A stretch of DNA of 64,000 nucleotides from Dehalococcoidia bacterium (GTDB taxonomy: Bacteria; Chloroflexota; Dehalococcoidia; GIF9; AB-539-J10). The stretch lies in assembly GCA_034431195.1 (NCBI GenBank), contig DAOUDP010000016.1, positions 1,839 to 65,838 on the forward strand. Reading direction: 5' to 3'. Made by a program: the position numbers and the translations under genes. Under the pieces are notes generated by a model, which was not told the origin of the DNA, searched no databases, and saw nothing but the letters and a program-made list of their open reading frames with translations. Positions 9,510 to 64,000 of the stretch are shown here, in pieces. Every line of letters begins with the position of its first letter. The first letter of the stretch is position 1.

Positions 9510-10526
9510 ATGATAGCGGAGATGAGAAAGGGCGCCACTACAGCGCAGGTAAATGCGGTGGTGCGGCGTGCCAAGTCGCTGGGACTGAGTGTCCAGTTGA
9601 ACTTGGGCACGGAAAAAACGGTGGTGGCCATGCTGGGGAGTGATACAGGGAAGCTGTCCACAGATATCTTCGCCGTGCTTCCTGGGGTGGAGAGTGTGAC
9701 CCGGATTATGAAACCCTATAAGCTTGCCTCCCGGGAATTCAAGGCAGAGGACAGCCTGGTTTCCATTAATGGAATCGAGTTTGGGGGCAGGCGCATTGTA
9801 GTGATGGCAGGGCCCTGTGCTGTGGAGAGCGAGGAGCAGCTTATGAGAGCGGTCAGGGCTGTGAAGAACTCCGGCGCCTCTATTGTCCGTGGTGGAGTGT
9901 TCAAACCACGTACCTCTCCCTTTAGCTTTCAGGGCCTGGAGAAGGCTGGCCTGGAGTTGCTGGCGCTGGTCAGGCAGCGGTTCAGCATACCCGTAGTCAC
10001 CGAAGTGGTAGACCCTCACGATGTTGATGAGGTATCCAAGTATGTTGATATCCTTCAAGTCGGGGCCCGAAATATGCAAAACTTCGCCTTACTGACCGAG
10101 ATCGGAAAGAGCAAGCGCCCTGTTCTGCTGAAGCGGGGGTTCTCGTGCACTGTTGCTGAGTGGCTTACAGCAGCCGATTACCTGCTCTCGGGGGGGAATG
10201 ACCAGGTTATCCTGTGTGAGAGGGGTATCAGGACCTTTGAGGACAGCACTCGCTTTTCCCTTGATGTCTGCTCTATACCCGTGGTCAAGAAATTCAGCCA
10301 CTTGCCTGTAGTCGTCGATCCCAGTCATGCTGCGGGCCACTACTCCTTTGTCCCGGCTATAGCCAAGGCCGCGGTTGCTGCTGGGGCCGACGGGCTCCTC
10401 ATCGAAGTTCACCCCAACCCCAAGCAGGCCCTAATGGATGGCCTCCAGTCCCTCACTCCATCGGATTTCGCCAGGTTGATGAAAGAGCTCAGGCTAGTTG
10501 CCAAATCGGTAGGCCGATCTATCTAG
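9510..10526 (+). CDS. 3-deoxy-7-phosphoheptulonate (DAHP) synthase, type I-beta with N-terminal ferredoxin-like regulatory domain
   Basis: 338 aa. …INGIEFGGRRIVVMAGPCAVESEEQLM…KPRTSPFSFQGLG… matches the KDO8PS/DAHPS I-beta family. The start may lie a few codons downstream. Confidence 0.8.
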   Translation: MIAEMRKGATTAQVNAVVRRAKSLGLSVQLNLGTEKTVVAMLGSDTGKLSTDIFAVLPGVESVTRIMKPYKLASREFKAEDSLVSINGIEFGGRRIVVMAGPCAVESEEQLMRAVRAVKNSGASIVRGGVFKPRTSPFSFQGLEKAGLELLALVRQRFSIPVVTEVVDPHDVDEVSKYVDILQVGARNMQNFALLTEIGKSKRPVLLKRGFSCTVAEWLTAADYLLSGGNDQVILCERGIRTFEDSTRFSLDVCSIPVVKKFSHLPVVVDPSHAAGHYSFVPAIAKAAVAAGADGLLIEVHPNPKQALMDGLQSLTPSDFARLMKELRLVAKSVGRSI

Positions 10527-10894
10527 TGTAGGGCATAGGCGTACCTCAACAGCGGCAGCGGCATCACCTGTTAAGAGGAGTTGGCTCATTTGACCCAGCT
10601 ATCTGTTGGCCGAATACCGCATGGCTTGGCTTAGGTTCTTGATGGTTGGCTCGTGTTAAGGCTTAGAAACGGATTGGACATTCCTCCCGTACGTGAGCAA
10701 AAGATAGAGGAGCTCAAAGTCTCATAGGTGGGCGGCTGAGTTTTCGCCTGTTTCATGGACAGGCCTAATGGGGGCTTGCCGGGCTGCATTTGAGGGCCCT
10801 TATCGGGGTGGGAAACAATCCTGGATGGCAAGAGGCAACCTAGTTTTTAATCGTTCCCAATCCACATCGCAGCAGGCACATAAGGATTGAGATC

Positions 10895-13348
10895 CTACTC
10901 TGACCAGTCTTTGGTTGCAGTGGGGAGACTCATACGGGAGACCTGCCTGATGGCAGGTATCTGGGAAACAAGGAGGATGACCAGCGCGGACACACAGGCG
11001 ATAATATAAGACCTGGGGAAGATAATTGCAGTCATGCTGAAAATATCCATCTCAACCTGGGCCATGAAGTAATTGGCAATATAACATCCCAGCGGAATAC
11101 CGATAGCAACCCCCAGGCAGCCTATGAGCAGGTTCTCCAGGGTGAGGATGATGACTAGCCGGGACTGGCTCATGCCCACGGCGCGCATAATGGCAATCTC
11201 CCGCCTCCGCTCAAGCACATTCACCGTCACTCCGTTGAAGATAATTGCCATTCCCAGGGCGAAGCCCATGGCTAGCATCACGCCGATGAAAGCCCAGAAG
11301 AAGCCCATCAGTTCATCTACGAAGCGCTTTGCCTCGCCGGAGAACTCTATTGAGGCGGTCTTGGGAAGCCTGTAAAGCCTTTCCATGAGCGCTGCCGATG
11401 GCTCACCGTCGAAGCGTAGCAGCACCCCGGTGGCTGCCCCGGGCGACCGTAGAAGCTCTTGCGCCTCCTCAAGCGGCATGAAAGCCCTGCCGCCCAGTGG
11501 CTCATTGATGAACCCTGCCAGCGTCTTTTCCGTTTCCCCAACCGAGCCTACAACAGGTTCCAGGTGAATCTCATCGCCGGGTTCAGCACCCAGCTTGTTT
11601 TTCAAAGGGATGGAGAGCAGTATACCGTCTTCGACGACGGTGGTGGGATGACCCTCCGGCGTCAAGAGGGTGTACATAGATGACCCTTTCGGCAGTCCCA
11701 GAATGCTGCTATCGGCTACCTGGTCTCCGCTCTGAAGGCGGTAGGGCAGCTCAAGCACAGGCTCGGCTTCCTGTATTCCCTGGAGGTGCTCGATGTAAGA
11801 GGCGGTTGTCGCTGCTCCCTGACCCTGGAAATGGAGCTTGGCATCATAGTTCTGAATGACTTCGAACTGGGTATACATGAGAGACTCCGTGGCGTCCACG
11901 AACGACAAAGAGACCAGGATCAGGGCAATAGCTGAAGCTACTCCCATGGCCATAAAAAAACTCCGCCGCAGGTTGCGGAAGAAATTCCGGAGAGGCAATT
12001 TCAGGACGCTGGGAAGCAGGGAAACAAAGGGCAGCAGGACTTCGAGCAGGGTGTGGTGGCCGGCACGCGGTACAGGAGGGCGCATTGCCTCCGCAGGGCA
12101 CATTCTGGCTGTCGCCCATGCGGGAAGGAGTCCCGCAGTCAGCGGGACGATAATCCCGATAAGCGCGCCTAGACCTACTATATACCAGTGTGGCTCCACC
12201 ACGACGAACGGCAGCTTGAGCTGGGCGGCATAAACGCTGGTGAGAAAGCTGGCTATGGTGTGACCGAGCAGTGCCCCAAGCACTGAACCGATTACTCCCA
12301 CCACCAGGGCAAATCCCATGTAGTGAAACATAATCTGGAGGGCGCGGTAGCCGAGGGCTCGCATCAGACCAATCTGCGCACGCTGTGACTCCACCAGGCG
12401 GTTCAGGAGAACGTAGATGGCAAGTGCAGCCATGGAAAGGAAGAGCAGCGGAAACAGCACGGCTAGCTGTCTGAATCCATCCACATCCTGCTTCAGGAGG
12501 CTGTTGCTGGGCTGGTCTTCTCTCGCAATCATGTAAGCTGTGCGAACGCCCTGGATGATATCTATCTTCCTGGTGCTGATGGCAATGGGCTCGTCCTTGG
12601 ATGTTAGTCTCATTATGCTATAGCGTCGAAGGACACGGCTGACCTCGCTGAGAGCCTGGGTGGGGTCTGTTCCCGCTTCGAGGAGCAGGTTGACTTCGTT
12701 CACACTGCCCTTCAAGCTGAAGAGGTCCTCAGCTCTTTCCCGGGGCATGAAGATAACGCCGAAGGTACGCGCCGTGGTGAATAACTCCTGGGCACTTTTG
12801 GTCACCCAGATATATTCAGGGCTGACCACTGTGCCTGCTATTCTGAAGCGTACCTTGCTGCTGTCTCTCTCAATGGTGAGCCAGTCGCCAGGATATAGCT
12901 GGTGATATTCGGCAAAGCGCTTCTCCAGTAGTATCTCGCGCTGGGCGCCGGGAGACAGGTAACTGCCGCTCTCTATGCGCACATCATTTATTTCGGGATG
13001 CTCACCTGATGGTAGTGAGATGACCCTTCCCGATACCTTCTCACCAGTCTCCAGCTGCAGGTCGATGGTTACATCTCCCACAATGCGACCCTGTGCCACT
13101 ACGCCGGAAACATCATTCATTTCTGTGATAGCCCTGAGGGGCAGATAATCCACCGATATCCAGTAGTCTGCCATGCGCAACTGCTCATAGGAGCCTTCAT
13201 AAGAGCTGTCCAGGTTCTGGTATGCTTCGTAGGAGCCCACGAAGGTAGCTATGCCAACAATGATGATGAGTACCACGGCGCCAAACTGTGCTCTGGCTGA
13301 GGTTAGATCGCGGAGCAGCTTACGATGTAGCTTGGGCAGAGCTACCAT
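10895..13348 (-). CDS. ABC transporter permease, MacB-like with two FtsX domains and large extracytoplasmic domains
   Basis: 817 aa, 2 x (TM + large loop + 3 TM) topology. Start overlaps the ATPase gene (13342-13348). Confidence 0.8.
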   Translation of the reverse strand: MVALPKLHRKLLRDLTSARAQFGAVVLIIIVGIATFVGSYEAYQNLDSSYEGSYEQLRMADYWISVDYLPLRAITEMNDVSGVVAQGRIVGDVTIDLQLETGEKVSGRVISLPSGEHPEINDVRIESGSYLSPGAQREILLEKRFAEYHQLYPGDWLTIERDSSKVRFRIAGTVVSPEYIWVTKSAQELFTTARTFGVIFMPRERAEDLFSLKGSVNEVNLLLEAGTDPTQALSEVSRVLRRYSIMRLTSKDEPIAISTRKIDIIQGVRTAYMIAREDQPSNSLLKQDVDGFRQLAVLFPLLFLSMAALAIYVLLNRLVESQRAQIGLMRALGYRALQIMFHYMGFALVVGVIGSVLGALLGHTIASFLTSVYAAQLKLPFVVVEPHWYIVGLGALIGIIVPLTAGLLPAWATARMCPAEAMRPPVPRAGHHTLLEVLLPFVSLLPSVLKLPLRNFFRNLRRSFFMAMGVASAIALILVSLSFVDATESLMYTQFEVIQNYDAKLHFQGQGAATTASYIEHLQGIQEAEPVLELPYRLQSGDQVADSSILGLPKGSSMYTLLTPEGHPTTVVEDGILLSIPLKNKLGAEPGDEIHLEPVVGSVGETEKTLAGFINEPLGGRAFMPLEEAQELLRSPGAATGVLLRFDGEPSAALMERLYRLPKTASIEFSGEAKRFVDELMGFFWAFIGVMLAMGFALGMAIIFNGVTVNVLERRREIAIMRAVGMSQSRLVIILTLENLLIGCLGVAIGIPLGCYIANYFMAQVEMDIFSMTAIIFPRSYIIACVSALVILLVSQIPAIRQVSRMSLPTATKDWSE

Positions 13349-14088
13349 TTGAGATCCTCAGGGTCCATTGGCTGGTTGTTGTGGATTGTCCCGGCAATCT
13401 GGCCGTCGCGCAGGCGCACCACACGGTCGGCAATGGCGCCTATAGCGGAATTGTGAGTGACTACCACTACGACCTTTCCCTTCGTTTCGTTGAGCATCCT
13501 CAGCAGCTTGTAAATGCGTTTGCCTGTCTCGAAGTCCAGGGTGCCTGTGGGTTCATCACAGAGGAGAATCGGCGGGTCAGTGGCCAGGGCCCTGGCTATG
13601 GCCACTCGCTGGTTCTCGCCGCCCGACAGCTCGCTTGGGAAATGCTTCATGCGCTCTTCCAAGCCTACCTCGTGTAGTATCTCTTCAGCAGACCTGTGAT
13701 GCTTCACCAACTCAGCGGCGAACTCGACATTTTCCGTGGCGGTGAGGGTTGGAATCAGATTGAAGAACTGGAAGATGAAGCCGATTTGCGTGCGTCGAAA
13801 ATTGGTGAGCTGGGACTGGCTCAGTTTCGTGATGTCGGTGTCGTTGACTATAATGCGGCCTGAGGTGGGAGAGTCCAGGCCTCCAATCAGGTTGAGCAGC
13901 GTGGTCTTTCCAGAACCACTGGGCCCTAAGAAGACGATGAATTCTCCTGCCATCACCTCGAAGGTGACGTCTCTTAGCGCCGGTACGAGAATCTTGCCCA
14001 TCTGGTAGTTCCTGGAAACCTTTTCTAATTTGATTGCTGGTTTCCTGGAATTTTGCTTGGCTGTTACCAGTTCCGAGGCATCGGCCAT
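13342..14088 (-). CDS. ABC transporter ATP-binding protein (MacB/LolD-like)
   Basis: 248 aa; Walker [10 protein letters not shown], signature [15 protein letters not shown], Walker B LLCDEPTG. Confidence 0.85.
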
Positions 14089-14265
14089 CGACTGCTTTCC
14101 TTTGCTGTGCTATGTAGCCAGCGCATGCTGCTGGGTCATCGGATTGACATGATTGGCTCGCGCCACTTGCCTCTCCTTGTGCGGACACGGGAGATTTTCC
14201 TCCCAGCTCATCGGGCTATGTTAACGCCGTTGCTCTCAAGCTGTCAACGCTAGGTACGGGGCATT

Positions 14266-14830
14266 TCGTTCTGCAATTTCAACCAACGTCTCGTGCGTAT
14301 AGTTCTGGAAGAAACTTGGGAAATTGCTGCATTTCCTCTTTATTATGCTTGCGTAAAGCGCTGCGATAGAGCCGAGGCGTCTTTGCTGGGAGTCGAAATG
14401 TCGAGCGCATCTGCGTTCCGTAGGATTCCTCCTGATACTCGTGAACAAGCCAGGCGATGGGCACGTCGTCCTGACCGAGGATACTGGCTGCCACGACATG
14501 GCTTGTAGGGGAGGTTATCCTCTATGAAATCCTCGGCGCGGACATGGCGCGTATCAAGGACGAGCAGAGTGGCTTCGAGCTTCTGGAGCCTCGGGTCAAT
14601 CAATGAGAGCTTTCAATTCTGGGGACATAATACCCGAGTTAAATCTCCTCTACCTTGACGGGAGAGGATTAAGGTGAGGGTGTTAGATGCAGATGGACAC
14701 GTGTCGCAATAATATGGTTGGGTGTCATTGCGAGCCGAAGGCGTGGCAATCCAGGTGGCAGGGTATTCAATGGCATTTGAGAAATGATGCTTGATTTGTA
14801 GTAGGTCTGATTAGTATTGCGTTCCTAACC
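14266..14830 (+). repeat. Repeat block R3: module e + duplicated PPC 3' fragment + modules b, c, d
   Basis: 14266-14336 matches 7520-7590; 14493-14616 matches 7183-7296; 14617-14692 matches 6640-6716; 14723-14830 matches 7351-7458 and 6770-6835. Confidence 0.7.
14493..14616 (+). pseudogene. duplicated 3' fragment of the PPC/DUF296 gene (TTWLVGEVILYEILGADMARIKDEQSGFELLEPRVNQ*)
   Basis: In-frame copy of the last ~37 codons of gene 6844-7296 with about 8 substitutions; no upstream coding continuation. Confidence 0.6.
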
Positions 14831-14833
14831 ACA

Positions 14834-14870
14834 CGAGATTGCTTCGTCGCCTACGCTCCTCGCAATGACA
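14834..14870 (+). repeat. copy of the gagattgcttcg…ctcgcaatgaca hairpin repeat family
   Basis: Shares termini with 24926-24955, 27424-27485, 59261-59415 and the tgtcattgcgag copies in R2/R3. Confidence 0.6.
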
Positions 14871-14929
14871 GAAGGAGGCACGCGGCCTTTTGAGAAAGCC
14901 CATTTCTTGCTACAATTGAGCGCCGGGCA

Positions 14930-15158
14930 AATGAGGTACTTTCTAGGCGTCGATATCGGCTCTGTCAACGCCAAGCTGTCCCTCATCGATGAGGATGGCA
15001 GGGTTGTTCAGTTTGACGCTGAGAAAGTAAGCTCCAGCTCCAGGGCCACAGTCACTTCACTCATCGCTAGGCTAGGCGAGATATTCAATCTGGAACAGAT
15101 TGTCGCCGCAACCAATGAATTCAAGACTCCTCGGCCGGAGTCCCCCACCACTTCTTGA
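14930..15158 (+). pseudogene. N-terminal fragment of a BadF/BadG/BcrA/BcrD-type activase ATPase gene
   Basis: MRYFLGVDIGSVNAKLSLIDEDGRVV… parallels the N-terminus of gene 35153-36124 (MKGYLGVDVGSVTTKLALLDEHEQLI…). The frame collapses after ~60 aa and runs into rarA. Confidence 0.45.
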
Positions 15159-16464
15159 GCCTGGCGGCGATCTCCTTTTCATAACCCTGGTCGCCGGGGA
15201 GATAGTAGCGCTTTCCGTGAAGGGATGAGGGCAGGTTTTGCTGCTTGACAAAATGGCCAGGATAATCGTGGGCATATTTATAGCCCTTGCCATGTCCCAT
15301 CTGGCGCATCAAGCCAGTTACCGGGTTACGCAAATGCAGCGGCACTGGCTCGTTTCGGCCATGCTGTATATCTTCCTGAACCCGAGAATAAGCCTGGTAC
15401 AACGAGTTGCTTTTGGGAGCAGTTGCCAGATAGACCACGGCTTCAGCTAAAGCTAGATTGCCTTCAGGCAAACCCACAAAGTGCACTGCTTGCTGGGCAG
15501 TTACCGCTATTGTCAGGGCTTGTGGGTCAGCCATGCCCACATCCTCAGAGGCGAAGCGCACGAGCCGGCGGGCGATGTAGAGAGAGTCCTCACCGGCTTC
15601 AAGCATACGCCCCAACCAATACAAAGCAGCGTCTGGATCCGAGCCACGCAAGGACTTGTGGAGGGCCGAAATCAGGTCATAGTGCTGGTCGCCACTTTTG
15701 TCATACAGTAAAGCACGGTGCTGCAGCGCCTCCTCAATGGCCGGCAGGCCTATCGGGCGCCGCCCCTCGCTGTCAGGCAAAGTAGCAAATGTCGCCATCT
15801 CCAGGGCATTCAACGCTACCCGAGCATCTCCATTGGACATAGCCACCAGGTGTTTCACAGCCTCCTCAGCTATATCAACTTTGAACTCCCCCAGTCCCCT
15901 TTCCTCATCCTTAACAGCCCGCTCCACGATGACCTTGATTTCCTGGTCACTCAGCAGATTCAGCCAGAAGGTACGGCACCGAGAAAGGAGCGGCGCAATA
16001 ACCTCGAAGGAGGGATTTTCTGTGGTGGCCCCAATTAAAGTTACCGTGCCGTTTTCCACGAAAGGCAGTACAGCATCCTGCTGCGCCTTATTAAAGCGGT
16101 GAATCTCGTCAACAAAAAGAATTGTCCTCTGCCCCGATACCCTTAACCGTTTCCTGGCTTCACCGATAACATGTCGTAAATCGGCTACCCCAGCACTTAC
16201 CGCACTAAGAGGACTGAAGTAAGCCTTGGTGACACTGGCAATAATCTGGGCCAGAGTCGTTTTGCCACTGCCCGGCGGCCCCCACAAAATTATGGAGGGC
16301 AACTGGTCTGCTTCGATGCATTTGCGGAGCACGCGCCCTTCAGCAACTAAATGCTCCTGTCCCACAAACTCAGCAAAAGTCCGCGGGCGCACCCTTGCCG
16401 CCAGAGGCATGCTGCGAGGCAGATCATCTCCCTCAGGTAGATCAAAAAGAGGTAAATTCTCCAT
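15121..16464 (-). CDS. rarA: replication-associated recombination protein A (AAA+ ATPase)
   Basis: 447 aa; Walker A GPPGSGKTT, MgsA/RarA C-terminal domain. Confidence 0.85.
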   Translation of the reverse strand: MENLPLFDLPEGDDLPRSMPLAARVRPRTFAEFVGQEHLVAEGRVLRKCIEADQLPSIILWGPPGSGKTTLAQIIASVTKAYFSPLSAVSAGVADLRHVIGEARKRLRVSGQRTILFVDEIHRFNKAQQDAVLPFVENGTVTLIGATTENPSFEVIAPLLSRCRTFWLNLLSDQEIKVIVERAVKDEERGLGEFKVDIAEEAVKHLVAMSNGDARVALNALEMATFATLPDSEGRRPIGLPAIEEALQHRALLYDKSGDQHYDLISALHKSLRGSDPDAALYWLGRMLEAGEDSLYIARRLVRFASEDVGMADPQALTIAVTAQQAVHFVGLPEGNLALAEAVVYLATAPKSNSLYQAYSRVQEDIQHGRNEPVPLHLRNPVTGLMRQMGHGKGYKYAHDYPGHFVKQQNLPSSLHGKRYYLPGDQGYEKEIAARLKKWWGTPAEES

Positions 16465-59246: not shown

Positions 59247-59260
59247 ATAGACCTCCTTTC

Positions 59261-59415
59261 CTGTCATTGCCAGGCATACCCCCTTTTTGTCATTGCGAGG
59301 CATACCCCCTTTTGTCATTGCGAGGAGTGTTAGCGACGAAGCAATCTCTGGGAAGGGGCGAGATTGCCAGTCCTTCGTTTCATGTCATTCTGAGCGTAGC
59401 GAAGAATCTCCTCGT
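59261..59415 (+). repeat. cluster of three tgtcattgc(g/c)agg copies plus agcgacgaagcaatctc and a degenerate gtcattctgagcgtagcgaagaatctc copy (hairpin repeat family)
   Basis: Direct reading; same family as 24901-24965 and the other copies. Lies between the convergent etfA and dockerin-like genes, so likely terminator-like. Confidence 0.65.
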
Positions 59416-59507: not shown

Positions 59508-60830
59508 TCAAACTAAGTCTCCATGTTGATCCCAGTTAGCATACATTAGTGACCTGTCCTCAAGAGTAATCCATCCATCGCGATTGAAGTCACAATGAGG
59601 ATTCCAATTAGGGTCACCTTCGTGGGAGTCCCAGGCTGCATAGAGCAGAGACCTGTCTTCAAGGGTAACCCAATCATCGTTATTGGCATCGCCCTCACGA
59701 GTGGTGCCAAAGTCAACCATCGCCTCACCACGCAAGTCCACCCCAGTCTCCAGCTCGCTGAGACATGTCCAGTTCTTAATTCCGATGTCATAGGTGCCAG
59801 GAGTAAGGTCAGTAATGTTGAAAACCCCGGTCTCGTTGGTGGTGGCAGTCCCTTCCCACAGCACGTTGTCGAGATTACCGGGCTCGAATAACTTCACCTC
59901 AAAGGGCTCTATCCACCTATCATCGGGAGGGTCACCCCGTCCTGCGAAACTAACGACTCCCTTCAAGATACCAGCGTGGTAAGGTTTGAACACCGTGTCG
60001 CTCACGACTCCGCTCCCACTCCATAGTTGCGAGTCGTCTAGGATAGTTGTGCCGGTATATTTCCAGCACACCCAGTCATCGAAGGAATACGCTTTGTTCA
60101 CGCCGTCATAGGTTGAAGTACCAACTCTCCATCCTTGGTATGTCCAGGTTATGTAAGCAGTGTCCATGTGGCACACCCGCCCCTCAGCATAACGCCAATC
60201 AGTACCATCGTAATAACAAGCATGGGCGTTTAGTTCTTGCCAGTTTGTTGTCGTAATGGCTTGTTGACTCTCCACTCCAAATTGAAAATGCTTATACCAA
60301 TTACCACCATGTGACTGCCTCCCAACCAGGAAATTGCTGTCGCTGGTTGGGTGATTCCACAAATAGACATCGGTTGGCTCGTCGTTGTTATAAGCGGTGG
60401 AATCCTGATATACATAAAGAGTGTAGATTACCTTGCCGTAGGCAATATCCATCCTTTCGTAGTAAAAGAGGTAGTAGCCTCTGCCAACATCCCGAATAGG
60501 TCCAGCATATTTCTGGCTGTTTTCATGCCATCCCTGAGGTTGCCATTTTACATAATTGTTCCTCATCAGACCCACAACATTCTGGTATGTCCATCCTGAG
60601 GGTGAAAGTCCACTGCCACCGGCTACGCTCGAAACGCCCATCAAATGTGTGAAATATGGAATCTGGTCAGCCTGCGTCCCGGCATAATTAACAGTGACCA
60701 ACACTCTGTCTGTAATATTAGCGTTTTCCTTCAGATATCCACCCATGTAAGGTCCCGCTTCGACTTGCACAGGGACCAGGACGAGAAGGAAAGCCAGGAC
60801 GATTAGAGTGGCAAGGATTCCCTTAGTCAC
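59508..60830 (-). CDS. secreted protein with Trp/Tyr-rich N-domain, CarD/prealbumin-like beta-sandwich and C-terminal dockerin-like EF-hand pair
   Basis: Signal peptide MTKGILATLIVLAFLLVLVPVQVEA; duplicated Ca-loop segments DANNDDWVTLEDRSLLYAAW and DFNRDGWITLEDRSLMYANW. GTG start overlaps the upstream gene stop. Confidence 0.5.
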   Translation of the reverse strand: MTKGILATLIVLAFLLVLVPVQVEAGPYMGGYLKENANITDRVLVTVNYAGTQADQIPYFTHLMGVSSVAGGSGLSPSGWTYQNVVGLMRNNYVKWQPQGWHENSQKYAGPIRDVGRGYYLFYYERMDIAYGKVIYTLYVYQDSTAYNNDEPTDVYLWNHPTSDSNFLVGRQSHGGNWYKHFQFGVESQQAITTTNWQELNAHACYYDGTDWRYAEGRVCHMDTAYITWTYQGWRVGTSTYDGVNKAYSFDDWVCWKYTGTTILDDSQLWSGSGVVSDTVFKPYHAGILKGVVSFAGRGDPPDDRWIEPFEVKLFEPGNLDNVLWEGTATTNETGVFNITDLTPGTYDIGIKNWTCLSELETGVDLRGEAMVDFGTTREGDANNDDWVTLEDRSLLYAAWDSHEGDPNWNPHCDFNRDGWITLEDRSLMYANWDQHGDLV

Positions 60831-61440
60831 GAGTCTTCACCACTATATATCCCTCAGGACCTCCCCAAACCCTTTCACCCATTAAAATTCCCTCATTGGG
60901 ACCTAAAGAAATCGTCTGGACCCCGGGAGGAAAATCCTCGGGCACGTGAATGACCAGCGTGATGGGCAGAATTTCATTCGCCTTTATTTCCACCGTTCCA
61001 TTGGGAATATAGCTTATGAGGTCATTGACGCAAAAATAGCCATCCCTGCCACTGTAATGTTCGAGATGAATGGCATTCGTCGGGTCGTGCGGGGCTATTT
61101 TTATGTTTGCTTGTGTAAAATTAGGGAGAAAGGAAATTAAGTGGACCAAGACAGTTATGTTCACATCCTCGCCTCTGTCAGCATAGATGACTTCAGGAGT
61201 ATCCTCACTTACGTTAATGAAAACGTATCCATAGTAGCCCCACTTCAGACTATATTCAGCGTCAGGCACCGGCATTATAGCACCTATGCCCCCATCCCCT
61301 TCGGGCTCACTCTCATTTGCATTAGGTGCTGAGGCAGGCCCACTTCCCCCTCCTGTCAGCCCTGTCTGGCTGCACGAGAGGGGAACAACCGCCAGAGCAA
61401 GCAGCAGGACCATTATTCCTAACATCAAATTCCTTCTCAT
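60823..61440 (-). CDS. secreted/lipoprotein of unknown function (paralogue of 63522-64000)
   Basis: 205 aa; signal peptide MRRNLMLGIMVLLLALAVVPLSCS; shares …ISYIPNGTVEIKANEILPITLVIHVPEDFPPG with the paralogue. Confidence 0.4.
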   Translation of the reverse strand: MRRNLMLGIMVLLLALAVVPLSCSQTGLTGGGSGPASAPNANESEPEGDGGIGAIMPVPDAEYSLKWGYYGYVFINVSEDTPEVIYADRGEDVNITVLVHLISFLPNFTQANIKIAPHDPTNAIHLEHYSGRDGYFCVNDLISYIPNGTVEIKANEILPITLVIHVPEDFPPGVQTISLGPNEGILMGERVWGGPEGYIVVKTRD

Positions 61441-61473
61441 CGCCCTTTTCCTCCTGTTAGGTCAATTTTACCA

Positions 61474-61700
61474 CCTGGGGGGCGGTTTGTAAATCTTATG
61501 CGACCTCCACTTGCGCTATCTCTTTAGCCAGCTCCATATCGCTTTCAGCGGAGGCATTGCCAGCAAGAGCAGGACTTATTGGCAGCAGAAGCATGGCTAA
61601 TACGATGCCTAGAACCAATTTCACATTCTTTCTTTTCATTGCTTCCGTCCTAACTTAAAACCGGCTTACTCAGGATAAACCTGCACGCCTTCGTCACCCC
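61474..61700 (+). repeat. ~227-bp direct repeat, copy 1 (second copy 63110-63335): 3' end of blade-repeat gene + small-peptide ORF
   Basis: About 90 % identity by eye over the whole length. Confidence 0.7.
61496..61639 (-). CDS. small secreted peptide ORF (47 aa: signal peptide + 21-aa acidic tail)
   Basis: Manual ORF MKRKNVKLVLGIVLAMLLLPISPALAGNASAESDMELAKEIAQVEVA. N-terminus resembles the signal peptide of the adjacent lipoprotein, so it may be a gene remnant. Confidence 0.3.
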   Translation of the reverse strand: MKRKNVKLVLGIVLAMLLLPISPALAGNASAESDMELAKEIAQVEVA

Positions 61701-62985
61701 ACAGCACCTTGCCCTGGGAGTCTATCCTTTGAGCGTAGAGCGTATCCCGATAACAAACGTACTTGCCTGTCTCTGTAACGAGGATAGCACCGCCGGAACT
61801 ATCGCTTACCACCGAGTACACAAACTCGGGAAAATCAGCCTGCCGCCCAGTGAATAGCTGCACTCCTCCCTCTCCCCACATTGGCTCACCATCAGGATTA
61901 ATCCTTTGGGCGCGAGGTGATGGTCCATACTCTTTAGGAGGTCTCCCAGCAACGATAGCTCCGCCGGAACCATCATCAGTAATGCTACGCATGTCAATAG
62001 AAAGATTCATCGGCTCTGCCCATTGAAGCTCCCCTTCTGAATTCACCCTCTGCGCCTGTCGGTACCAGACTACGATGGCTCCTCCAGCGTTATCTGGTGT
62101 TATCGCAACGCTGGGAGAAGGGGCTGTTATGGGTAAGGCACCGAGTTGTATTCCTTCTTTTTCCCACAGGAGTTTCCCATCAGGGCTTAATCTCTGAACG
62201 CAAGCTTGAGGATAGTCAAAACGTGGCCCTAGCCAGGCTACAATGGCGCCATCGGAGCCATCGCTCACAATCTGAGGAGTGGTCTGAGCATGCTGTGGAG
62301 CGCATACCGGAATGCCACCCTCCGGCCACAAAATTTCACCCTCCGGGCTTATTCTCTGAGCGTAGATGTCATACTGCCCACTAGCAGCACGATTATCTGG
62401 CCAGACTACGATAGCACCACCTGAGCCGTCAGCTAATATACGAGGCTTATTATCACTACCAGGTGTCAGTGTAGTGCATATTGTAATTCCCTCCTTCGAC
62501 CACATCACCTTACCTTCATGGTCTATCCTTTGCATCTTGCCTCCTGAGGCTATGATGACCCCTCCATAGCCATCGGGCACCATATCACATACGCAACCAA
62601 CCCCGGACACTGGTTTTCCTCCTTGCCCCCAGAGGAATTCGCCCTCGGAATTAATTCTTTGAGCACAAACGCCTCTCTCAGCTTCGCCCCAGACAACGAT
62701 AGCACCGCCGGAGCCATCCCTAATCACATGAAGCGGGCACCACAGCCGAGTAGTGTTCAGTACCAACCCTTCTCCCCAGCGGAGATTGCCTTCAGAGTCT
62801 ATTCGCTGGGCGTATGCTACATTTTCATCTTCCCAGCTAACGAAGACGCCTCCTGAGCCATCGGGAGTGACATCATGGTAGAGACATTTGTAACGAGGGG
62901 GCCATTCAATGTCAATACAGCCACTGAACAATACTGCTACAGCTGTCATCAAAGCTAAGGCCATCAATGCCCATTTCTTGCTCAT
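61666..62985 (-). CDS. lipoprotein with eight tandem ~48-aa repeats (putative beta-propeller)
   Basis: Lipobox LFSGC; repeats of the form DGSGGAIVVW…YAQRI..EGE.LW.EGG. Confidence 0.5.
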   Translation of the reverse strand: MSKKWALMALALMTAVAVLFSGCIDIEWPPRYKCLYHDVTPDGSGGVFVSWEDENVAYAQRIDSEGNLRWGEGLVLNTTRLWCPLHVIRDGSGGAIVVWGEAERGVCAQRINSEGEFLWGQGGKPVSGVGCVCDMVPDGYGGVIIASGGKMQRIDHEGKVMWSKEGITICTTLTPGSDNKPRILADGSGGAIVVWPDNRAASGQYDIYAQRISPEGEILWPEGGIPVCAPQHAQTTPQIVSDGSDGAIVAWLGPRFDYPQACVQRLSPDGKLLWEKEGIQLGALPITAPSPSVAITPDNAGGAIVVWYRQAQRVNSEGELQWAEPMNLSIDMRSITDDGSGGAIVAGRPPKEYGPSPRAQRINPDGEPMWGEGGVQLFTGRQADFPEFVYSVVSDSSGGAILVTETGKYVCYRDTLYAQRIDSQGKVLWGDEGVQVYPE

Positions 62986-63109
62986 TTTTTTCTCACCTCC
63001 ATCTCGCTGTCCGATAATGCAGCAATCGATAAAAGCAATAAAATCATGATTCCTAATGTGAATTCCCCCTTCATTGCACCTTCCGGTTCTTTCAAAGCAA
63101 CTTTATCCT

Positions 63110-63335
63110 CCTGGGGGGCGGTTTGTCAATCTTATGCGACCTCCACTTGTGATATCTCTTTAGCCAGCTCGATATCGCTTTCAGCGGAGGCATCTCCAGC
63201 AAGAGCAGGACTTATTGGCAGCAGAAGCACGGCTAATACGATGCCTAAAATTGCTACGCTTTTCCTTTTCACTGTTGCCCCCCTAACTTAAAACCGGCTT
63301 ACTCAGGATAAACCTGCACGCCTTCGTCACCCCCC
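63110..63335 (+). repeat. ~227-bp direct repeat, copy 2
   Basis: Matches 61474-61700. Confidence 0.7.
63132..63272 (-). CDS. small secreted peptide ORF, copy 2 (GTG start)
   Basis: (V)KRKSVAILGIVLAVLLLPISPALAGDASAESDIELAKEISQVEVA; the start codon is ATG in copy 1 and GTG here. Confidence 0.25.
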   Translation of the reverse strand: MKRKSVAILGIVLAVLLLPISPALAGDASAESDIELAKEISQVEVA

Positions 63336-63529
63336 AGCCACCTGCCACTGGGAATTTGGCTAGCTTGTGTCTCTTGATAGTTGACATCAAACAACACCAT
63401 GTTTGAGGTCACAACACTGCGTTTTAGATATCCACCCATGTAGGGCTGCTCTGCGTTGGCCTGCAATGGAGCAAGAACGAGTAGCGCAGCTATGATGAGT
63501 GCAAAGGCAAGGACTCTCTTCTTAATCAG
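63299..63529 (-). pseudogene. chimeric remnant: signal-peptide/N-terminus of a dockerin-protein paralogue fused to the last 11 codons of the blade-repeat gene
   Basis: Frame gives (FL)IKKRVLAFALIIAALLVLAPLQANAEQPYMGGYLKRSVVTSNMVLFDVNYQETQASQIPSGRWLGGDEGVQVYPE*. The GTG start of the intact paralogue is CTG here. Confidence 0.45.
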
Positions 63530-64000
63530 GAATCATCACCTCCAATTTGCTTATCTCACTAAGCACAGGAACATCTGTCGTAATTCCCACAGCACCTAGC
63601 CGAAAAGATGATGGCATAATCCCTTCAGGGAGATCAGCAGGCACACGGATAGCCATCGTAAGGGGTAAGGTTTGATTTGCCTCCATCGTGATGGTTCCAT
63701 TCGGGCTATAGCTCATAAGCTCATTGATGTTAATAACGCCTCTTTCAATGATATCGCCCTCAGCATCCTCAATAACGTAGTACTGCTCAATCTTACAATC
63801 ACTATCCTCGGGGTCTATATTTACCTCTACCTCAGTGAGCTCAGGAACATGGGAAACGAAATGGAGGAGGATAGTTATGGTTGCCGCTTCACCTCTCTTA
63901 ACATATAGTACCTCTGGAGACTCAGCGGATAAGTTGATGTCCAAATATCCACGGATGCCGTATTTCTGGGCAACTTCAGGGTCACGTATTTCCACATGTG
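63522..64000 (-). CDS. secreted/lipoprotein of unknown function, paralogue of 60823-61440; 5' end beyond window
   Basis: …MSYSPNGTITMEANQTLPLTMAIRVPADLPEG… is similar to the 60823 product. The track ATG at 63995 is probably internal. Confidence 0.4.
   Translation of the reverse strand, partial: HVEIRDPEVAQKYGIRGYLDINLSAESPEVLYVKRGEAATITILLHFVSHVPELTEVEVNIDPEDSDCKIEQYYVIEDAEGDIIERGVININELMSYSPNGTITMEANQTLPLTMAIRVPADLPEGIMPSSFRLGAVGITTDVPVLSEISKLEVMIPD

Follow-up and report, generated by a model that had tools for sequence, protein, structure and literature searches.

A variable surface-protein gene slot in a Dehalococcoidia bacterium, probably shaped by old microhomology deletions and unequal recombination

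How does a short chromosomal block come to hold related lipoprotein genes, a fusion gene, a direct repeat and several very small open reading frames (ORFs) side by side? The question is raised by positions 59508-64000 of the window, that is, the whole stretch of 64,000 nucleotides analysed here, which belongs to contig DAOUDP010000016.1 of a Dehalococcoidia bacterium (GenBank assembly GCA_034431195.1). An earlier note on this DNA had described a recombining tandem array of cell-surface genes with the minus-strand order of lipoprotein gene (lipoB), chimera of a dockerin-type and a blade-repeat gene, small peptide B, blade-repeat (propeller) lipoprotein gene, small peptide A, lipoprotein gene (lipoA) and dockerin-like protein gene (dockA), and the ORF map agrees with this order. 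We mapped the window proteins onto 36 related loci (L-numbered below). The comparison makes it probable that the region is a variable slot for surface proteins between the EF-G gene and etfA in an uncultivated Dehalococcoidia-type bacterium, and that the array was put together by microhomology-mediated deletions and unequal recombination. This is clear but ordinary gene-cluster evolution and not a new molecular system.

In the explanation that we favour, the pieces would come from two kinds of operon, one in which a lipoprotein promoter is followed by a small Ig-like lipoprotein gene and the gene of a dockerin-tagged protein (lipo-dock), and one in which a propeller lipoprotein gene precedes the gene of a Peptidase_C39_2-like dockerin protein. 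Three old microhomology-mediated deletions would have fused parts of these operons: at junction J1, peptidase codon ~46 would meet the sequence immediately ahead of the lipoprotein promoter; at J2, lipoprotein codon ~23 would meet the propeller gene's ribosome-binding site; and at J3, codon 67 of a dockerin-type gene (dockB) would meet the last 9 propeller codons. Together, J1 and J2 would have produced a unit in which a promoter and a dead lipoprotein leader precede a propeller gene and a dead peptidase start. Unequal homologous recombination could copy or remove this unit, and J3 would then have destroyed one propeller copy along with dockB. The outcome would be the series read in the window, namely lipoB, dead chimera, dead peptidase start, promoter, dead leader, intact propeller gene, second dead start, promoter and lipoA-dockA.

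Gene fragments and deletion junctions

The two ORFs taken by the earlier note for small peptide genes proved to be the dead 5' ends of a Peptidase_C39_2-like, dockerin-tagged gene. Small peptide A (61496-61639, minus strand) consists of the first 47 codons of this peptidase-type gene, and small peptide B (63132-63272, minus strand) of its first 46 codons, with a GTG start and a 3-nt deletion. Intact genes, coding for Peptidase_C39_2(+Dockerin_1) proteins of 541 or 553 aa, come after propeller genes in L034-L036. The 553-aa protein of L036, which begins MKRKSVKLVPGVILAVLLLAISPALGDASAESDIELAKEIARVEVAKNAGDYPEW..., reached 37.2 bits for Peptidase_C39_2 (PF13529, Pfam cut-off 24) and 25.8 bits for Dockerin_1 (cut-off 22.9), and from these scores and the gene order it follows that the native operon is a propeller lipoprotein followed by a C39-like dockerin protein. 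The window ORFs share 69-77% identity with residues 1-46 of the L036 protein (77% for copy B). No intact peptidase gene was found in the window, which retains only codons 1-46/47, and because the peptidase domain (residues ~221-361) lies beyond the retained codons, the window ORFs are fragments and not members of Peptidase_C39_2; they have no Pfam or NCBIfam match. In addition, the variable sites of seven truncated copies are spread 13/5/11 over the three codon positions, with no excess at the third, the ratio of nonsynonymous to synonymous codon differences is 99:46, and the copies of L010 and L034u either stop at codon 2 or lack a start. Judged by these substitutions, the small ORFs evolve neutrally, and some copies are disrupted. 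A real peptide-gene status was rejected on the basis of the peptidase N-terminus homology, the neutral pattern and the disrupted copies.

All three junctions were resolved at the nucleotide level, with microhomology at each. For J1, a 14-sequence DNA alignment of module copies, intact peptidase genes and native EF-G/lipoprotein intergenic regions was used. On the two sides of the junction, the intact peptidase genes read ...GTTGAGGTTGC and TAAAAATGC, the native intergenic regions ...CAAGGTTGC and AGAAATCTGACAAACC, and every truncated copy ...GAGGTCGC and ATAAGATTGACAAACC. It is one junction with an AGGTTGC microhomology, common to 8/8 truncated copies from 6 genomes. In the window, it lies at 63136-63142 of the minus strand in copy B (AGGTCGC), between peptidase codon ~46 and the region upstream of the lipoprotein promoter, and at 61500-61506 in copy A. 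A different peptidase junction was also observed in L009 (250-345) and L036 (1900-2000), where a longer peptidase fragment ends in ...G[KE]I[VL]GHGVP[IV]P and a stop codon and is followed by a small ORF without its own 5' part; being shared, this junction indicates at least one further propagated scar in the locus family.

Directly after J1 lie the two best promoter-like matches on the minus strand of the region, TTGACA-18-TAAAGT at 63100-63129 in copy B and TTTACA-17-TAAAAT with TG at 61465-61493 in copy A, and both sites are homologous to native upstream regions of lipoprotein genes (L006, L016, L007). Transcription of the dead lipoprotein leader and propeller gene may start from the copy B site, and that of lipoA-dockA from the copy A site. 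A signal-peptide-only ORF had been placed at 63001-63093, which is out of frame and 19 nt off; the ORF, MKGEFTLGIMILLLLSIAALSDSEMEVRKK followed by a stop codon, is located at 62982-63074 of the minus strand and represents a dead lipoprotein 5' end. Compared with true 5' ends of lipoprotein genes, its DNA is 60-71% identical between promoter and lipobox and 12-24% identical beyond. The lipobox Cys codon has become GAC (63011-63009), J2 is found at about 63003/63002 next to the ribosome-binding site GGAGGTGA (63000-62993), and the TGA stop overlaps the propeller ATG. J2 occurs in the window, in L034 and three times in L036, and the leader remnants of L034 and of the third L036 unit carry frameshifts. 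The two small peptides and the signal-peptide-only ORF are thus all gene remnants.

The chimeric pseudogene (63299-63529, minus strand) is composed of dockB codons 1-67, which specify the signal peptide plus ~40 residues, and the last 9 propeller codons and stop. Over its first 60 residues it shares 51% identity with the 440-aa dockA, its N-terminus is 85% identical to the full-length dockB parent type in L010, and its end, ...DEGVQVYPE, is that of the 439-aa propeller protein. A fusion of a dock signal peptide to a propeller end had been predicted correctly, but the propeller part comprises only DEGVQVYPE, 9 codons and stop (63327-63299). The SGRWLGG before it is the dock paralogue's own (compare ...IPDGK[SW]LGGVASVAGG in intact relatives), and ...DEGVQV[WY]PE is the native C-terminus across the propeller family. 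Likewise, the deletion that had been proposed stands, though not as one between paralogues, since the joined genes, a dock paralogue and the propeller gene, are unrelated and met at a 6-nt microhomology. A three-way nucleotide comparison (dockB of L010/L008, chimera and propeller 3' end) put J3 at GGGGTG (63328-63333, minus strand), at the end of a ~25-nt patch in which both parents encode G-K-x-L-x-G: dockB passes from ...GGTAAGTGGCTAGGGGGCG to TTGCC, the propeller gene passes from ...GGCAAGGTGCTGTGGGGTG to ACGAAGG, and the chimera switches between them at GGGGTG. In the intact propeller gene, this site corresponds to 61695-61700. The start position of the chimera is CTG (63529-63527), exactly where relatives have GTG (L014, L015, L030 and the window dockA) or ATG (L010, L012, L009, L013, L020), in agreement with the start-codon loss from GTG to CTG that had been suggested. 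CTG at the dockB start is present only in the window and in L008, and dockB is truncated in both, at different points. These cases carry a warning for annotation, as "small secreted peptides" with signal peptides or a "chimeric gene" in a metagenome-assembled genome (MAG) can be dead 5' ends of neighbouring families.

The direct repeat and the age of the scars

The 227-bp repeat reported earlier does exist. Aligned over 230 columns, with 7 gap positions and a longest exact run of 48 nt, 61474-61700 and 63110-63335 share 89.6% identity, well above the limit of ~70% that the earlier note had set for its claim, and a repeat search and BLAST extended the copies to 61466-61713 (copy A) and 63102-63346 (copy B) at about 88-89% identity (E = 5e-89). 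The alignment is well above chance over the copy length, as in a segmental direct repeat; no third copy was found in the window by these searches. Both copies have the same composition, namely the propeller tail, the intergenic spacer, the peptidase 5' fragment, J1 and the lipoprotein promoter, so the gene 3' end and small ORF had been recognised and the promoter had been missed. The 230-bp repeat is not a gene; it is homology for further unequal crossover, and it would supply a promoter to whichever gene lies downstream. The module has no Rfam family (the sole match, RsmY at E = 0.98, is at chance level) and folds no better than shuffled sequence (z-score 0.25); a structured or known RNA was therefore rejected.

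Identity between the copies forms a mosaic of 93%, 55% and 95% along the repeat. Over the first 41 ORF columns, where A and B are only 55% alike, copy B has the GTG start and 3-nt deletion in common with the L010 and L012 copies at 93% identity, and copy A is 94-97% identical to intact peptidase genes (as are the 5' 40 nt of small peptide A to those of L036). Copies A and B thus belong to old lineages with patchy homogenisation. A recent private duplication was rejected, since the orthologues of copy B are the L010/L012 copies and those of the 5' part of copy A are intact peptidase genes.

The related loci show how variable the slot is. Between EF-G and ETF, lipoA-dockA stand alone in L006, L029, L003, L004 and L033, and a third allele pair, lipoC-dockC, is present in L016 and L017. 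L008 has lipoB and a dockB truncated at a different point; L010 has a chimera, a small ORF, a lipoB-type gene and a full-length dockB; and L012 has two successive units of lipoprotein, chimera and small ORF. In L036 there are three propeller genes, each after a dead lipoprotein leader and before a small ORF, the last small ORF being followed by the intact 553-aa gene. None of the lipoprotein-anchored loci among the 36 holds a propeller gene; the window copy is flanked by the two repeats. Populations therefore differ in having zero to three propeller genes and different alleles of the lipoprotein and dockerin-protein genes.

The scars themselves are neither private nor recent. J3 was found in the window, in L010 and twice in L012. 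One of the two L012 copies, frameshifted, has a dockC-type N-terminus; a frameshift is recorded in the first L012 chimera, and the L010 chimera has no start. Altogether, J1-J3 recur in L008-L012 and L034-L036, and their recurrence in other populations demonstrates old, inherited scars. The two L012 modules are 95.8% identical with 7 private variants in common, and their dock-derived flanks are 69% alike; unequal recombination has later copied the scars, with partial homogenisation. When the window is compared with L010, EF-G and ETF agree at 83-89% of third codon positions, and protein identity is 69% for lipoB and 96% for EF-G. On these comparisons, the surface genes turn over far faster than the flanking genes. 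The description of the locus as recombining and decaying is borne out by the repeat, the deletion-made fusion scar, the lost start codon, the decaying fragments and the dynamics in relatives.

In these respects the locus resembles the pseudogenes that microhomology deletion and unequal crossover generally leave in bacteria, with short junction microhomologies (AGGTTGC, GGGGTG), truncated 5' fragments, start-codon loss, frameshifts and nonsense codons in relatives and direct repeats around a unit that varies in copy number. There is no essential difference; here, three early-fixed junctions were propagated in a repeat unit with a captured promoter. The locus provides a resolved example of how the surface repertoire of an uncultivated, streamlined Dehalococcoidia can change in one slot by microhomology deletions, promoter capture and unequal crossover.

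Several further observations concern the relatives. The full-length dockB of L010 (10650-11990) has one internal nonsense codon, between SHSGNW and KHFQFG, and lipoA of L004 (246-859) is frameshifted, with a 178-aa product. Comparison of window 59508-61440 with L029 9748-11680, together with EF-G taken from L007 against L029, gave third-position identities of 64% in EF-G, 89% in lipoA, 84% in dockA and 80% in etfA, which suggests that either the lipoA-dockA cassette or EF-G has been exchanged between lineages by recombination. In L011 (1-800), lipoA is followed by dockA codons 1-27 fused to EF-G codons 613-689 and then by a lipoB-type gene, and in L036 (7039-7449) remnants of the dockA C-terminus and of EF-G (codons 648-688) lie beside etfA. 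This points to the inclusion of the EF-G 3' end in past duplications, although L011 could be an assembly chimera.

Linkage across the repeats and rival explanations

The setting of the array was seen in three Logan contigs from run SRR10836659 (L007, L001 and L002), the first two of which are 100% identical to the window. L007 runs through a cation efflux gene, EF-G, the full 196-aa lipoB and 75/76 chimera codons, L001 begins within repeat copy A and then covers lipoA and dockA, and L002 stops just beyond etfA. Taken together, these pieces place the array between EF-G and the convergent etfA, and the EF-G gene and the lipoB start sit just outside the window end, as seen in L007. This independent assembly also confirms the open frame of the chimera, at 100% identity across J3.

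The main uncertainty of the favoured explanation concerns linkage across the repeats, and a number of points weigh against it. The order of the segments across the repeats comes from a single short-read MAG assembly, and because the Logan k-mer contigs end inside the repeats, the linkage from chimera through propeller to lipoA would follow from the analogy with L034-L036. The order of the J1-J3 events is a reconstruction, and the putative promoters were assigned by consensus match. Furthermore, the window and L010 agree at 95% over the 3' part of the dead peptidase fragment, more than at the third codon positions of EF-G and ETF, a difference that could reflect some constraint rather than conversion or the shortness of the segment. 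The chimera retains a Shine-Dalgarno sequence and an open frame, with 9 synonymous and 9 nonsynonymous differences in a comparison made with the L010 copy only, and it might be weakly expressed from CTG.

The same uncertainty invites the reading that the contig joins co-existing strains at the ~230-bp repeats and that the array exists in no single genome. The source is a metagenome-assembled NCBI/ENA contig of 183,422 bp, the k-mer contigs of the same run stop inside the repeats, related populations with differing arrangements clearly co-occur in metagenomes, and the Joint Genome Institute (JGI) contig L011 looks like a possible chimera. Such an artefact is nevertheless quite improbable. The copies are ~10% different with no exact run beyond 48 nt, and standard assemblers can therefore resolve them; J3 is crossed by an independent assembly; the series of dead peptidase start, promoter, dead leader and propeller also appears in L034, L035 and L036, and that of dead peptidase start, promoter and lipoprotein gene in L009 and L010. 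Since the junction sequences recur with substitutions in six genomes, they are not assembly products. A second reading, which would make the 46/47-aa ORFs and the 76-aa chimera functional small secreted proteins or precursor peptides, such as substrates of a C39-type peptidase, gains from the intact signal peptides and ribosome-binding sites and from the 88-96% identity of the 3' part of the ORF among copies and genomes. C39-family peptidases process leader peptides, which we also count as support. However, the homology of the ORFs is to the N-terminal end of the peptidase-like protein and not to a substrate, their end is always the J1 deletion junction, and the codon-position pattern, the many nonsynonymous differences, the copies of L010 and L034u disrupted at codon 2 and the lack of a Pfam or NCBIfam match all speak against function, making this reading very unlikely.

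Cassette-based variation of surface proteins is known from Neisseria pilE/pilS and Borrelia vlsE, and the present locus is similar to these in its cluster of paralogous surface genes, its non-functional fragments and the evidence for gene conversion between copies. A programmed system, with the repeat modules as switching sites for surface-gene expression, might account for the many arrangements in one slot across populations, the promoter inside the repeat, the homogenised copies within arrays and the far faster evolution of surface genes than of flanks (lipoB compared with EF-G, window against L010). We regard it as highly improbable, because the locus and its surroundings contain no recombinase, invertase, reverse transcriptase or inverted repeats of note, the junctions are old and stable across lineages differing by 11-17% at third codon positions, and there is no layout of one expression site with silent cassettes. 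The repeats are all direct, so that recombination can only delete or duplicate, irreversibly, and the fragments are 5' ends with promoters, in contrast to the promoterless donor cassettes and single expression site of pilE/pilS and vlsE. No evidence for programmed or frequent switching was found at the locus, and a mobile element, a diversity-generating retroelement or a recombinase-driven system was rejected, as no such genes are present in the flanks. It is also unlikely that the repeat module is kept as a portable promoter-and-homology cassette, with recombination between copies adding, dropping and re-wiring surface genes at appreciable frequency within a population; if true, this would be a simple recombinase-independent way of varying the cell surface. 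The explanation by old deletions, copied and partly homogenised by unequal recombination, therefore remains the one that we prefer.

Encoded proteins and surrounding sequence

As had been proposed, the array is a tandem cluster of paralogues that code for secreted or surface proteins: lipoA and lipoB are 39% identical, and the chimera N-terminus is related to dockA as described above. Expression of the genes and surface display of their products are probable. The intact gene at 61666-62985 (minus strand) codes for a 439-aa beta-propeller protein, probably a lipoprotein, with the lipobox LFSGC, a motif that by inspection agrees with the PROSITE-type pattern and that homologues conserve. Its AlphaFold2 (AF2) model (pLDDT 87.7, pTM 0.86) is all-beta with repeated blades, as expected of a closed toroid of 4-stranded blades. 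Foldseek gave the 7-bladed propeller lectins PHL/PLL as top matches (E = 4e-8) and 355 PDB matches at E <= 1e-3; sequence identity to solved propellers is a mere 9-15%. The protein has no Pfam family above threshold. Its family, with over 6,800 matches, is labelled by JGI as "predicted lipoprotein with Yx(FWY)xxD motif" and has ~48-56-aa blades carrying the motif DGSGGAI..W / AQRI..G..LW; the close homologues of the window protein all end in ...WxDEGVQVWPE. The propeller model and the PDB matches described below support the original blade-repeat and dockerin-like calls.

The window holds the 3' 158 codons of the 196-aa lipoB (63998-63522, minus strand), a probable lipoprotein gene that runs off the window end. 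Its AF2 model has a pLDDT of 84 and an Ig-like beta-sandwich fold, for which Foldseek found PapD/ASH/MSP/CARDB-type sandwiches. The 205-aa lipoA (60823-61440, minus strand) is a probable lipoprotein of the same Ig-like sandwich family, which counts only 166 representative clusters among 1.84 billion, with occasional fusions to LRR, PKD or FN3-like domains. By inspection, both carry a conserved PLSC in which Pro at -3 departs from the lipobox pattern, and the Cys is missing from three family members. The stop codon of lipoA and the GTG start of dockA overlap by 8 nt at 60823-60830 (GTGACTAA), as do the corresponding ends of lipoB and the chimera (CTGATTAA), which suggests translational coupling of the lipoprotein and dock genes.

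In the secreted 440-aa dockA product (59508-60830, minus strand), a ~280-aa N-terminal domain is followed by a prealbumin-like X-module and a duplicated, dockerin-like segment. In Pfam, the protein gave only sub-threshold matches, to Dockerin_1 (14.7 bits, cut-off 22.9) and CarboxypepD_reg. The assignment as a dockerin comes from solved dockerins, its C-terminus matching the X-module-dockerin dyads 4wi0_B (E = 2e-4), 4u3s, 2b59 and 3kcp (E = 2e-4 to 0.05), and from the paralogue-type C-terminus in L036, which exceeds the Dockerin_1 (PF00404) cut-off. Two tandem ~22-residue Ca-binding segments, DANNDDWVTLEDRSLLYAAW and DFNRDGWITLEDRSLMYANW, align to both segments of 4wi0_B, so that the X-module and the duplicated Ca-binding-type segment (DANNDDWVTLED.../DFNRDGWITLED...) are similar to those of cellulosomal dyads. 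The ~280-aa N-terminal domain gave nothing significant in Pfam, NCBIfam or the PDB profile search (best, a GH43 C-terminal sandwich at E = 0.31). In L031 (4990-5850), a dock-type N-terminal domain stands alone (285 aa) without X-module and dockerin, and therefore behaves as an independent module. In contrast to cohesin-dockerin systems, no Cohesin match was found among the locus proteins in Pfam/NCBIfam or among the PDB matches of lipoB in Foldseek, and the adjacent lipoprotein is a PapD/CARDB-like sandwich. Unlike in cellulosomes, the dock cargo is the N-terminal domain without family match and a C39-like peptidase rather than glycoside hydrolases, and the host is of Dehalococcoidia type. Dockerin-like modules outside Firmicutes had been called noteworthy but are not, as they have been described since at least 2009, when such modules outside cellulosomes were surveyed (Peer et al., FEMS Microbiol Lett 291:1, cited in PMC6487960).

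The closest named relative is a contig of Dehalococcoidia bacterium CG2_30_46_19 (Chloroflexota), with 91% DNA identity over lipoA-dockA. The neighbouring genes encode EF-G, a cation-efflux protein, ETF, acyl-CoA dehydrogenase and similar proteins, and the remaining window consists of ordinary chromosomal genes. In the convergent intergenic region of etfA and dockA (59254-59410), a 26-nt tandem repeat of 2.5 copies, TGTCATTGCGAGGCATACCCCCTTTT, is followed by two palindromic elements of the GTCATTGCGAGG...CGAAGCAATC / GTCATTCTGAGCGTAGCGAAGAATC type; the region is ~90% conserved in relatives, and in L008 the truncated dockB is fused to it. Finally, window positions 10000-16000 have a G+C content of 0.53-0.56 as compared with ~0.45, and they carry a MacB/FtsX-type ABC transporter pair and an MgsA-type AAA+ ATPase, all of them ordinary genes.

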